NCBI GenBank assembly: GCA_965243165.1
Contig: OZ251535.1
Coordinates: 1,217,572 to 1,281,571 of the forward strand
Reading direction: 5' to 3'
Source: Candidatus Spongiisociaceae bacterium
GTDB lineage: Bacteria > Actinomycetota > Acidimicrobiia > Spongiisociales > Spongiisociaceae
Length of the DNA stretch: 64,000 bases
This document shows, in pieces, positions 53,174-54,484 of the stretch. The notes beneath the pieces are model-generated. The model had not been told where the DNA came from, searched no databases, and worked only from the letters and a program-made list of their open reading frames with translations. The position numbers and the translations under genes are program-made. How positions within the stretch are numbered: position 1 is the first letter of the stretch; each line of letters starts with the position of its first letter.

Positions 53174-53340
53174 ATCCGACCGCAGAGAAGCCAGGCAGGT
53201 CGGAATGGGCAGCTTCGAGATTGCCCGAGGCGGCATCAACGAGTTTCGGTATCGCCGACTCTTCAGACTCTTCGGGGCCGCCCGCCGCTGTCGGTATGCC
53301 CTGGCGGGAACCTCGTGAAATCACGGCTCGAAGTTCAGAA

Positions 53341-53456
53341 GACGAGCGGATAGGCGGAGGAGGATAGAAGTTTGTCGGCAGACGGCGGGGTGCCTGCCAG
53401 GGGTTCGCCGCCAGACAGCGCATCCGAACAACCTGGTGGGTCCATATCCGCTCGTC
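53341..53456. repeat. 116-bp palindromic (MITE/REP-like) element, copy 1
   Basis: Terminal inverted repeats GACGAGCGGATAGG ... CCATATCCGCTCGTC around a conserved core (GCATCCGAACAACCTGGTSGGTCC). Second copy at 53788-53903. Confidence 0.6.
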
Positions 53457-53787
53457 CCCTAACCAGGGCCGGCGGGTGCTCGCCTTACATCCGGCTGCCG
53501 AAATCTGTCATACCCCCCTGGTACCTTGGGGTGGTACATAAACCGCAGCCGATCCGGATGCTGCGGTCATACAGAGGCCGCCCCGCCCAGAGCCGAGGGG
53601 TTCCAAGGGGGGAGCGGCCGACCTGGCTGTGCTGAGACGGATCGGGCGCAGAGGGCCCCAACACGCCCTCGGCGTCTGAAGACGGTGGTTCGGAGGCGGC
53701 GGGGGCGGGGCCCGGCGAAGCCGGGGCGGGGGGCGGAGAACGCGAAAAACGAATGCGCTGCTACAGGCTTGGCGCCGGTTTGGGAAG

Positions 53788-53903
53788 ACGAGCCGATAGG
53801 CAGAGGGGGATAGAGGTTGTTGCTGGTCGGCGGGTTGTCTGCCGGGGGTTTCGCCGTGAGGCCAACGCATCCGAACAACCTGGTCGGTCCATATCCGCTC
53901 GTC
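53788..53903. repeat. 116-bp palindromic (MITE/REP-like) element, copy 2
   Basis: GACGAGCCGATAGG ... CCATATCCGCTCGTC, with the same length and core as copy 1. Confidence 0.6.
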
Positions 53904-54310
53904 CTCTCCTTCGATTCCAACCCAAATGCCCCCAAGTCCGCGAAAATCGGCCCACACCGCCGGGCCCAGCCCCCGCCGCCGCCTCCTTGAACGAAAATCC
54001 GCCGGGCCGCACGAGGCCGCCTCCGGCCCCGAGGGCCGGACCGAACGGGATCCGTTTCTGACCGCCGCCCTCTCCAGAACTCGCGGCGGTGTTTGTGCTT
54101 CAGCCCAATAGGTATACCAAATTTTGGGGCTTCCGGCTAGGGGTGTGTTGTAGAACATTTCGCGGACTCGGCGCGTCGATCCTCCAGCCTTCATCCGGGG
54201 GCGGCCCAGATCCGGGGGGGCAGGCCCGGATGCGGTGTTCATGTCGGTTTTTCGCCGCCTGCCTTCCAACTGCTCGGCTCGGGGCGGAAGCGGCAGACCG
54301 GACGCCGCGG

Positions 54311-54345
54311 CTCGCGGGCCGGGGGTTGCCGGCGAAGAGCCTGCT
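54311..54345 (+). repeat. Partial copy D (5' half) of the conserved 5'-region element
   Basis: ctcgcgggccgggggttgccggcgaagagcctgc matches the 5' part of copy B at 49925-49958. Confidence 0.4.
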
Positions 54346-54484
54346 TGGTTTCAGTTCGAGGTTCAAGAGGGCGAGAGGATAAGGCTGACCAGGTTGTTGG
54401 GCGCGTTGGCCTGGTGCGAAACCCAGGCGGCGAACCGGTTACCGCTGCAGCTTCTATTCCCCTTCTGCCTATCCGTTCGTCTTC

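Follow-up and report, generated by a model that had tools for sequence, protein, structure and literature searches.

The 64-kb stretch of DNA analysed here, termed the window, comes from an uncultured high-G+C lineage, and all positions given without a contig name refer to it. The interval studied (53174-54484) runs from the stop codon of an EamA-family transporter gene (52220-53173, plus strand) to that of a convergent gene for a 182-aa protein (54485-55033, minus strand), beyond which lies DAO, a gene for a FAD oxidoreductase (55584-56750). In the initial annotation the interval was described as gene-free and as containing two 116-bp palindromic repeats that resembled a MITE (miniature inverted-repeat transposable element) or a REP sequence, and either a structured non-coding RNA or a graveyard of miniature mobile elements was envisaged. 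Repeat finding and alignment place these two copies, called A and B below, exactly where they had been reported (53341-53456 and 53788-53903). The inverted termini had been quoted rightly (GACGAGCGGATAGG at 53341-53354 and CCATATCCGCTCGTC at 53442-53456), and the fragment of a terminus joined to what was named 'element C' is real and is seen at 55437-55457. Both copies stand, but a third full copy, C, which lies inverted at the far end of the interval, had been overlooked. The absence of a convincing open reading frame (ORF) was also borne out, as there is no Pfam match and both frames and stops differ between copies; the sole database relatives of the ORFs in the interval are spurious ORFs across the same repeats. 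Within the window the terminus pattern is matched seven times against 0.08 expected and the core pattern three times against 0.00 expected.

These copies belong to a repeat unit, here called E, that occurs together with further modules. From the sequence comparisons presented below, the interval is probably a hot spot of a lineage-restricted, non-autonomous, non-coding mosaic repeat family of the MITE, ERIC, BIME and BOX kind. Its modules occur at scattered loci with nothing else in common, vary in presence between close strains and are found repeatedly just 5' of the ATGC in a conserved intergenic motif, L. Related contigs are referred to by handles of the form L008, which are distinct from the motif.

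The E unit and its companion modules

The E unit is a hairpin of ~125-130 nt with inverted arms of 17-19 bp placed around a core of ~85 nt, and it exceeds the 116 bp first assigned to it because the stem runs on through G-U/G-T pairs. The arms, AGAGGACGAGCGGATA / TATCCGCTCGTCTTCT, are present in all nine full copies known, whilst the core retains the motifs GACCAGGTTGTT and GCGAANCCC and a C/T-rich run ahead of the 3' arm. The core itself is not palindromic, in that a covariance model for E, built from copies A, B and C, matches the opposite strand via the arms alone. Similarity between copies ends abruptly at the boundaries of the unit.

The copies split into two subtypes that are 55-70% identical to each other. 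Subtype 1 consists of A, B and the copies on contig L016, which are antisense and lie beside U, the repeat described below, whereas subtype 2 consists of C, the L008 copy and the second and third copies (E2 and E3) of L014, which are sense and follow U and a short leader, S. The better-folding strand is called sense for bookkeeping only. Copy C is more diverged, its identity to A and B being 62-64% when the copies are aligned to the model (70-76% by BLASTN) and that to the subtype-2 copies of L008 and L014 70-73%, and its 3' tail holds the stop codon of the convergent 182-aa gene. An invertible promoter switch was considered for E and rejected, there being no promoter-like site in it and the two orientations representing two diverged subtypes and not flipped copies.

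The 320 bp between A and B are not an anonymous spacer but form a second conserved repeat, U. The window copy of U is 87-91% identical to nine further copies (on L008, L013, L014, L015 and L016), and U copies carry the invariant 28-mer TCCGGATGCTGCGGTCATACAGAGGCCG. They also differ from one another by frameshifts and a stop codon, and the 'MNNRGQ...' ORFs called over U are therefore not credible. A coding role for U in producing such a peptide was likewise rejected, since a Shine-Dalgarno sequence is found in some copies only and the window copy is interrupted by a stop as well as a frameshift. One part of U, rich in G and with the hairpin CCCGGC-GAA-GCCGGG, lies at 53711-53725 and recurs alone at 22441-22500, at 37053-37067 and in other intergenic places, as well as inverted within the older block X (53958-53983) and on L009 and L015. 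Short and REP-like, the hairpin may form a mobile sub-module of its own.

Three kinds of layout are found. The E-U-E composite, in which U is opposite to both E copies, occurs in the window and on L016 (9961-10532). A tandem (U-S-E)n array, where S is a ~20-nt leader (GGTTTCAGTTCGAG..), is seen on L014 (7346-8260) and L008 (18287-19037), and truncated forms are present on L015 and L013. Across the window and L008, L013, L014, L015 and L016 the modules E, U, S, X, L and P (the promoter and leader module of the 182-aa gene) occur in varied combinations and orientations. Copy B reaches its highest identity, 83%, with the positionally equivalent first E of L016 (79% with A), whilst A is 79% identical to the second E of L016, no higher than to B (79%). 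Position-matched E copies thus tend to be most alike, which weakly supports a copying of the composite as a unit.

Older intergenic DNA, which relatives have in common and which is itself partly repeated elsewhere, accounts for roughly half of the interval (53174-53334 and 53916-54340). Pieces of block X are found at other loci (L009 5200-5412 and 8151-8365; L015 3426-3570), and the block holds an A+T-rich stretch, TAGGTATACCAAATTTTGGGGCTTCC. Block X, which L009 and L012 lack at this locus, probably represents repeats of the same kind from an older layer. The positions of all features are collected in Table 1.

Table 1. Features of the interval and of the adjoining DNA up to the DAO gene
Feature	Position	Strand	Remarks
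Older intergenic block X0	53174..53334	+	In L008 and L013 at 78-82% identity
Insertion 1, E-U-E composite, 578 bp	53338..53915	.	From junction comparison; architecture of L016
E copy A (subtype 1)	53335..53462	-	Covariance model match 53332-53464(-), 142 bits; 3' unit of E-U-E; copy 1 of the initial annotation
U module, ~290-nt non-coding repeat	53463..53780	+	Opposite orientation to flanking E copies
E copy B (subtype 1)	53781..53908	-	Covariance model match 53778-53911(-), 135 bits; 5' unit of E-U-E; copy 2 of the initial annotation
Older intergenic block X	53916..54312 (or to 54330)	+	In L008 (88%) and L013 (86%); absent from L009 and L012
L motif, left half (..GGGGGTTGCCGGCGAAGAGCCTGCTT)	54313..54340	+	Other half lies beyond insertion 2
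Insertion 2, 1118 bp: S, E, cargo gene, P module, E stub	54341..55458	.	Inside L motif; absent from L008, partly deleted in L013
S, short leader GGTTTCAGTTCGAGGTTCAAGA	54341..54362	+	Also between U and E in the L008 and L014 arrays
E copy C (subtype 2), opposite in orientation to A and B	54363..54488	+	Covariance model match 54362-54490(+), 116 bits
Cargo gene, 182-aa coiled-coil protein	54485..55033	-	GGAAGGAG ribosome-binding site, GTG start
P module, promoter/leader of cargo gene, ~400 bp	55034..55432	-	TATACT -10-like box, lower G+C; 94% identical to L013 1611-1954
E 3' stub (..CCGTCCATCCGCTCGTCTTCT)	55433..55458	+	Closes insertion 2 on the right; repeats 21-25 nt of a terminus
L motif, right half (ATGCGGCTCGAACAGGGATGGGCAC...)	55459..55514	+	Upstream of DAO gene

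Insertions, their target and copies at other loci

Relatives of the locus were found via DAO, homologues of which are 96%, 88% and 75% identical on ENA/Logan metagenome contigs. The spacer between the EamA and DAO genes measures 58 bp in L012, 89 bp in L009, 812 bp in L008, 1019 bp in L013 and 2410 bp in the window. DAO is 96% identical to that of the window in L008 and 88% in L009, and the DAO proteins of L012 and L013 fall in the same 90%-identity cluster as that of L008. At this locus L008 contains X0, X and an intact L motif, with no E, U or cargo gene, and by comparison the window has two insertions.

Insertion 1 is missing at the same site in both L008 and L013, and the same composite is found at an unrelated locus in L016. 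The empty site in L013 reads ..AAAGTTC|GATTCCAACCC.. and the occupied site in the window, with the inserted DNA in round brackets, reads ..GAAGTTC(AGAAGACGAG...CTCTCCTTC)GATTCCAACCC... For insertion 2 the empty site in L008 is GAAGAGCCTGCTT|ATGCGGCTCGAA and the occupied site in the window is GAAGAGCCTGCTT(GGTTTCAG...CGTCTTCTT)ATGCGGCTCGAA. In L013 the P module, the stub and a 37-nt piece of the core of copy C survive, but both arms of C and the gene have gone, and this contig is best regarded as an intermediate, decayed state of insertion 2.

The L motif, which is the 'element C' of the initial annotation, is a ~90-nt conserved intergenic sequence, GGGGCTTGCCGGAGAAGAGCCTGCGTATGCGGCTCGAACAGGGATG.GCAC.ACCC.C.ATCCCTTGGAACT, with two small hairpins, and is located upstream of plus-strand genes; it might itself act as a promoter, a leader or an attachment site. 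Copies lie at 27908-28002 and 49926-50020, in two halves in the window locus (Table 1) and at 9854-9943 of L008. The motif is intact in L008, GAGCCTGCTT^ATGCGGCTCGAA, as it is at 27908 and 49926 of the window, and insertion 2 splits it exactly before ATGC. The E-bearing composite of L016 is placed between ..AGAAGCCTTGTCTG and TATGCAAATCG.., which is an L-like sequence interrupted at the same relative point. Similarly, a U-U-S-E array in L008 ends ..CGTCTTCTGATACAT|ATGCTCGAATAGATGAGC where the window has an uninterrupted L-like sequence, ..GTTTGCTCATATAG|ATGCTCGAATAGATGAGC. The same 3' end of E thus faces ^ATGC in L-like sequence at three independent sites (window 55458, L016 10528 and L008 ~19040). 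Of the four junctions that can be resolved, three bring one and the same end of the element up to ATGC (GCAT on the complementary strand), and the fourth has GTTC/GAAC. On these alignments the repeated use of a single position in L appears to be the one feature that stands out in an otherwise ordinary family.

The L008 array forms part of a 1.7-kb replacement (17350-18245, especially 17440-17510) at a place where the window has ~95 nt between grdA and the L-like motif. This DNA contains a fragment like the 3' end of a tRNA, GGTTCGATTCCGCCCC, then a gene for a 312-aa nuclease of the HSDR_N/PD-(D/E)XK type and then U-U-S-E. The tRNA-like fragment suggests that the replacement is the remnant of an integrative element.

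Insertion 2 also brings in a gene. Its product, the 182-aa protein, forms a coiled coil, is anchored in the membrane at its C-terminus and contains three tandem repeats of 36 aa (108 nt). Contig L014 encodes a coiled-coil membrane protein with an N-terminal anchor (8258-8878, minus strand) that is 18% identical to it. Both genes are convergent, each stopping precisely where an E copy has its outer edge, and they share a homologous upstream module with a TATACT/TATAAT box, the P module, which in L013 is kept without the cargo gene. The coiled-coil proteins look like variable cargo behind a shared promoter.

The covariance model detected six more full E copies on three contigs, one on L008, three on L014 and two on L016, mostly with expectation values of 6e-13 to 1e-20, bringing the total to nine on four sequences. 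Their neighbours are unrelated, and the L008 copy is away from the EamA-DAO locus. Searches with a spurious ORF of L008 and with an ORF of the window returned about 20 more spurious ORFs over E and the adjoining repeats, in varied frames and orders, some of them on other ENA contigs. Four of these ORFs lie on a 3.19-Mb NCBI contig, which adds at least four loci that contain U and in part also E. This contig encodes a DAO protein (P0127) whose N-terminus matches the DAO of the window, and it is probably the source chromosome. The 5412-aa P0151, with 23 stretches, was discarded as an unrelated low-complexity repeat protein.

Among 185,579 species-representative genomes the exact pattern was matched seven times, which is at chance level, and these matches were rejected, having neither the stem partner nor the expected context. 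No match to the E pattern or to an invariant 26-mer of U was found in JGI metagenomes, two scans of IMG/VR gave none, and BLASTN gave none against plasmids and phages or against 5,426 complete E. coli genomes.

The initial annotation had allowed for a similarity confined to this locus. All the window copies do lie within 2.3 kb, but with six full copies on three other contigs, more on the 3.19-Mb contig that is the probable source chromosome and chance accounting for at most 0.08 matches, a local tandem or inverted duplication, or chance similarity only, is extremely improbable. The copies on other contigs therefore set local duplication aside, and the earlier description as miniature mobile elements, or a graveyard of them, holds in substance, as the copies are at unrelated loci and are present or absent between close strains.

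Competing interpretations and a possible mechanism

It is unlikely that E, or U-S-E, constitutes a family of small structured RNA genes that regulate translation, for example, or pair in antisense with the mRNA of the convergent coiled-coil gene, with a long closing stem and a conserved C/U-rich internal loop (UCCUCC / UCCCCU, complementary to Shine-Dalgarno sequences) as the functional parts. One strand of E does fold better than shuffled sequences. For A and B the z-scores are -3.5 and -2.9 on the minus strand, compared with -2.4 and -0.35 on the plus strand, whilst C folds at -49.3 kcal/mol on the plus strand and at -40.1 kcal/mol on the minus strand. The better folding of the minus strand of A and B and of the plus strand of C arises because several stem positions are G-U there. 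Mismatches in the closing stem on that strand favour G-U over A-C (29 versus 11 cells), the loop motifs are kept across the subtypes, U is 87-91% conserved and has a fold with z = -2.0 on just one of its strands, and a gene that converges with copy C has its stop codon inside that copy. When the mismatches are counted as independent events, however, they come to ~14 versus 8, and the strand bias that was promising at three to four copies is not significant at nine. The consensus structure of the nine copies has 82.6% of cells paired versus 80.9% in column shuffles, with five pairs showing double changes versus 3.9 expected and a covariation score exceeded by 64 of 500 shuffles, whilst U is almost without informative variation (a covariation term of 0.07 kcal/mol). 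The diverged copies E1 and E2 of L014 have several plain stem mismatches. Rfam 15 gave no match at the gathering score in the whole window, and at a permissive threshold (expectation value <= 10) only three chance-level matches in 53000-55700, with values of 2.6-5.7. There are no promoter-like sites in the region, and its five terminator-like matches, no more than in shuffles, adjoin no E or U copy. Moreover, E copies are dispensable between strains and decay into stubs. The structured RNA raised in the initial annotation was thus not sustained, given that there is no Rfam match, that pairing and covariation are no better than in shuffled or shifted controls and that stems decay in diverged copies. 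The hairpin could still matter once transcribed, and the most economical guess at a function would be a 3' hairpin, either a terminator or an mRNA stabiliser, for convergent transcripts.

The use of a fixed position in L raises another reading, in which the modules are cassettes of a site-specific recombination system, with L as the attachment site and E as the cassette-borne site, analogous to the attI and attC of integrons, and with tandem insertion at a CTT^ATG core by a recombinase encoded elsewhere. This too is improbable. It would account for the occupation of three independent L-like sites at the same position and for tandem (U-S-E)n arrays with a small gene and its promoter behind them. 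The two ends of U (ATGAACAACC... / ...GCTCGGGCTT) would rebuild an L-like core if joined, and a gene for a 157-aa excisionase-family helix-turn-helix (HTH) protein, the nearest suggestive gene, lies 1.2 kb upstream (51498-51971), with an L motif before the gene that precedes it. Integron attC sites are marked by two cores, R'' (RYYYAAC) and R' (GTTRRRY), and by a stem in which a central spacer is left unpaired and some bases are extrahelical. The likeness of E to these is one of analogy only, in that imperfect palindromes (~60-140 bp) bound small unknown genes and insertion is at a defined primary site. An assignment of E to attC was rejected, as its ends (5'-..GTT(A/C)RG..AGAGG / CTTCTNAA-3') lack the core motifs, its 17-19-bp stem is continuous and not bulged, there is no integrase in the window or any related locus examined, and orientations are mixed, with E in both orientations relative to U. 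Furthermore, insertion 1 is outside the L motif, and insertion 2 begins with S and a full E but closes with an additional stub, an outcome that a simple one-site crossover would not predict. It is equally doubtful that E, U and the promoter-plus-gene units make up a previously undescribed, integron-independent site-specific insertion system, in which L would be the attachment site with a crossover at CTT^ATG(C) and E would be recognised by a recombinase or single-strand transposase encoded elsewhere.

For the mobile, non-coding mosaic family that is favoured here, the following course of events can be proposed. E would travel with U, with the leader S and sometimes with a promoter module and a small coiled-coil membrane-protein gene. 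An enzyme encoded elsewhere would move the modules in trans, recognising the hairpin or the inverted ends together with the core of L. Candidates for this enzyme are a single-strand transposase of the HUH/Y1 type or a site-specific recombinase. IS200/IS605-type derivatives (PATE-like) insert by a fixed tetranucleotide, without duplication and in one orientation. Copies would then decay in place, giving rise to remnants such as the stub at 55433-55458 and those in L013. Where E is transcribed it probably acts only as an RNA hairpin, stable and placed where convergent transcripts have their 3' ends, and not as an RNA gene itself.

Several points weigh against this interpretation. No mobilising enzyme and no autonomous parent insertion sequence were found in the 64-kb window or in ~120 kb of related loci. 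More specifically, Pfam scans of 37 window ORFs and the precomputed Pfam tables for L008-L016 contain no transposase or integrase. Insertion 1 is not at an ATGC site (GAAC/GTTC). Candidate 3-nt target-site duplications, namely TTC for insertion 1, CTT for insertion 2 and TCT for L016, overlap the C/T-rich end of E, and the evidence for target duplication is therefore ambiguous; the candidates also imply inconsistent element ends, and single E units inside composites show none. Presence and absence could partly reflect recombination or deletion, not transposition, and the conservation of U at 87-91% versus 55-83% for E, together with the kept loop motifs of E, could reflect function and not recent spread. 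Finally, nine full E copies are readable in all, the public collections having given no others.

In this lineage, intergenic regions that look long and "empty", as well as many hypothetical proteins of 150-350 aa, are artefacts of the modular repeats. Gene callers have already deposited spurious proteins of 80-360 aa in public collections (P0141-P0150 and P0152-P0163), which are translations of the E, U and X repeats in assorted frames. The modules provide strain-level markers, the same locus spanning 58 to 2410 bp, and mark genome-plasticity hot spots beside restriction/methylase islands. If the preference for one position in L is true genome-wide, the family would offer a compact system for studying target choice by non-autonomous hairpin elements.

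Known repeat families and the surrounding genes

REP sequences are comparable to E as transcribed 3' hairpins. BOX elements are assembled from modules in the order boxA-(boxB)n-boxC, and the neisserial intergenic mosaic elements (NIME) are likewise modular (described in part in PMC3184786). E resembles BOX and NIME in being modular with variable internal modules, in being restricted to a lineage, in its slow turnover as judged by insertion-site comparison and in the spurious ORFs over large arrays. Unlike them, it has different modules and sizes, and some arrays carry a promoter-plus-gene cargo in a defined target motif. BOX is comparable to E as a transcribed hairpin as well. In the pneumococcus new BOX insertions arise slowly (PMC3049150).

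A MITE is defined by terminal inverted repeats around a core, the absence of a transposase and flanking target duplications, and elements of ~100-160 bp include ERIC (~127 bp) of the Enterobacteriaceae, Correia/CREE of Neisseria and RUP of S. pneumoniae (PMC3184786). ERIC forms a stable RNA hairpin when transcribed and is located at transcript 3' ends (PMC3184786). With ERIC, Correia and RUP, E has in common its size (~125 nt), inverted termini, lack of a transposase gene, intergenic position, variability between strains, a long hairpin if transcribed and a location near gene 3' ends. In contrast to them, it has no sequence similarity (0 matches in the E. coli genomes and no Rfam match), no clear target-site duplication or TA target, and is mostly found inside composites with U, with a preference for one position in a ~90-nt motif. 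Likening the elements to MITEs, as was done initially, is therefore apt for the terminal inverted repeats, small size, missing internal transposase and dispersed copies, but the target duplications are ambiguous and no parent insertion sequence was found.

REP/BIME clusters and REPINs are mobilised by RAYT (Y1) transposases (PMC2817692, PMC3116915). Like REP/BIME, E occurs in mosaic clusters with other conserved extragenic motifs and in both orientations, and for both no target duplication is expected and the mobilising enzyme would be encoded elsewhere. Unlike REP or a REPIN, it is a 125-nt unit with a non-palindromic 85-nt core and not a G+C-rich palindrome of 20-40 nt or a symmetric REP doublet, and its copy number appears low to moderate, whereas REP sequences exceed 100 copies. 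No RAYT gene is present in the window or in the related-locus sequence examined. Hence the label 'REP-like' suits the clustered mosaic arrangement but not the size of the unit. As E fits several classes in part and has no homology to ERIC, it is filed as a lineage-restricted, non-autonomous intergenic mosaic repeat; the family is ordinary in kind, undescribed in detail and belongs to no named family.

Around the interval, the EamA-type transporter genes at 52220-53173 and 56851-57738, which flank DAO, are paralogous (75-79% nucleotide identity over ~650 nt). The order EamA-DAO-EamA lies upstream of a glycine/sarcosine/betaine reductase cluster (grdB, grdA and others) and is kept in L008, L009, L012 and L013. 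The lineage carries glycine/sarcosine reductase, SLH and SpoIID genes and to that extent looks Bacillota-like. The gene before that of the HTH protein encodes a 396-aa protein (50197-51387) with no family match and has an L motif just upstream, and both genes are kept in L008. An AlphaFold2 model of this protein is all helix with a predicted local distance difference test score (pLDDT) of 49 and is not usable.

Further away, 30051-37121 is a single ORF of 2356 aa with two glycosyltransferase-2 regions and an internal duplication of ~3 kb at 70-81% identity (repeat families D1, D3, D7, D9 and D10). The regions 9051-18436 and 19681-21294 encode three unknown proteins, one of them weakly NurA-like, an SbcD-like phosphoesterase and an SbcC/Rad50-like ATPase, followed by a DNA methylase. 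Further along, at 44816-48879, a second methylase and a 913-aa DUF1156 protein are encoded. These three regions are possible defence or repair islands. On L014 the arrays of E and U lie between methylase and helicase genes.

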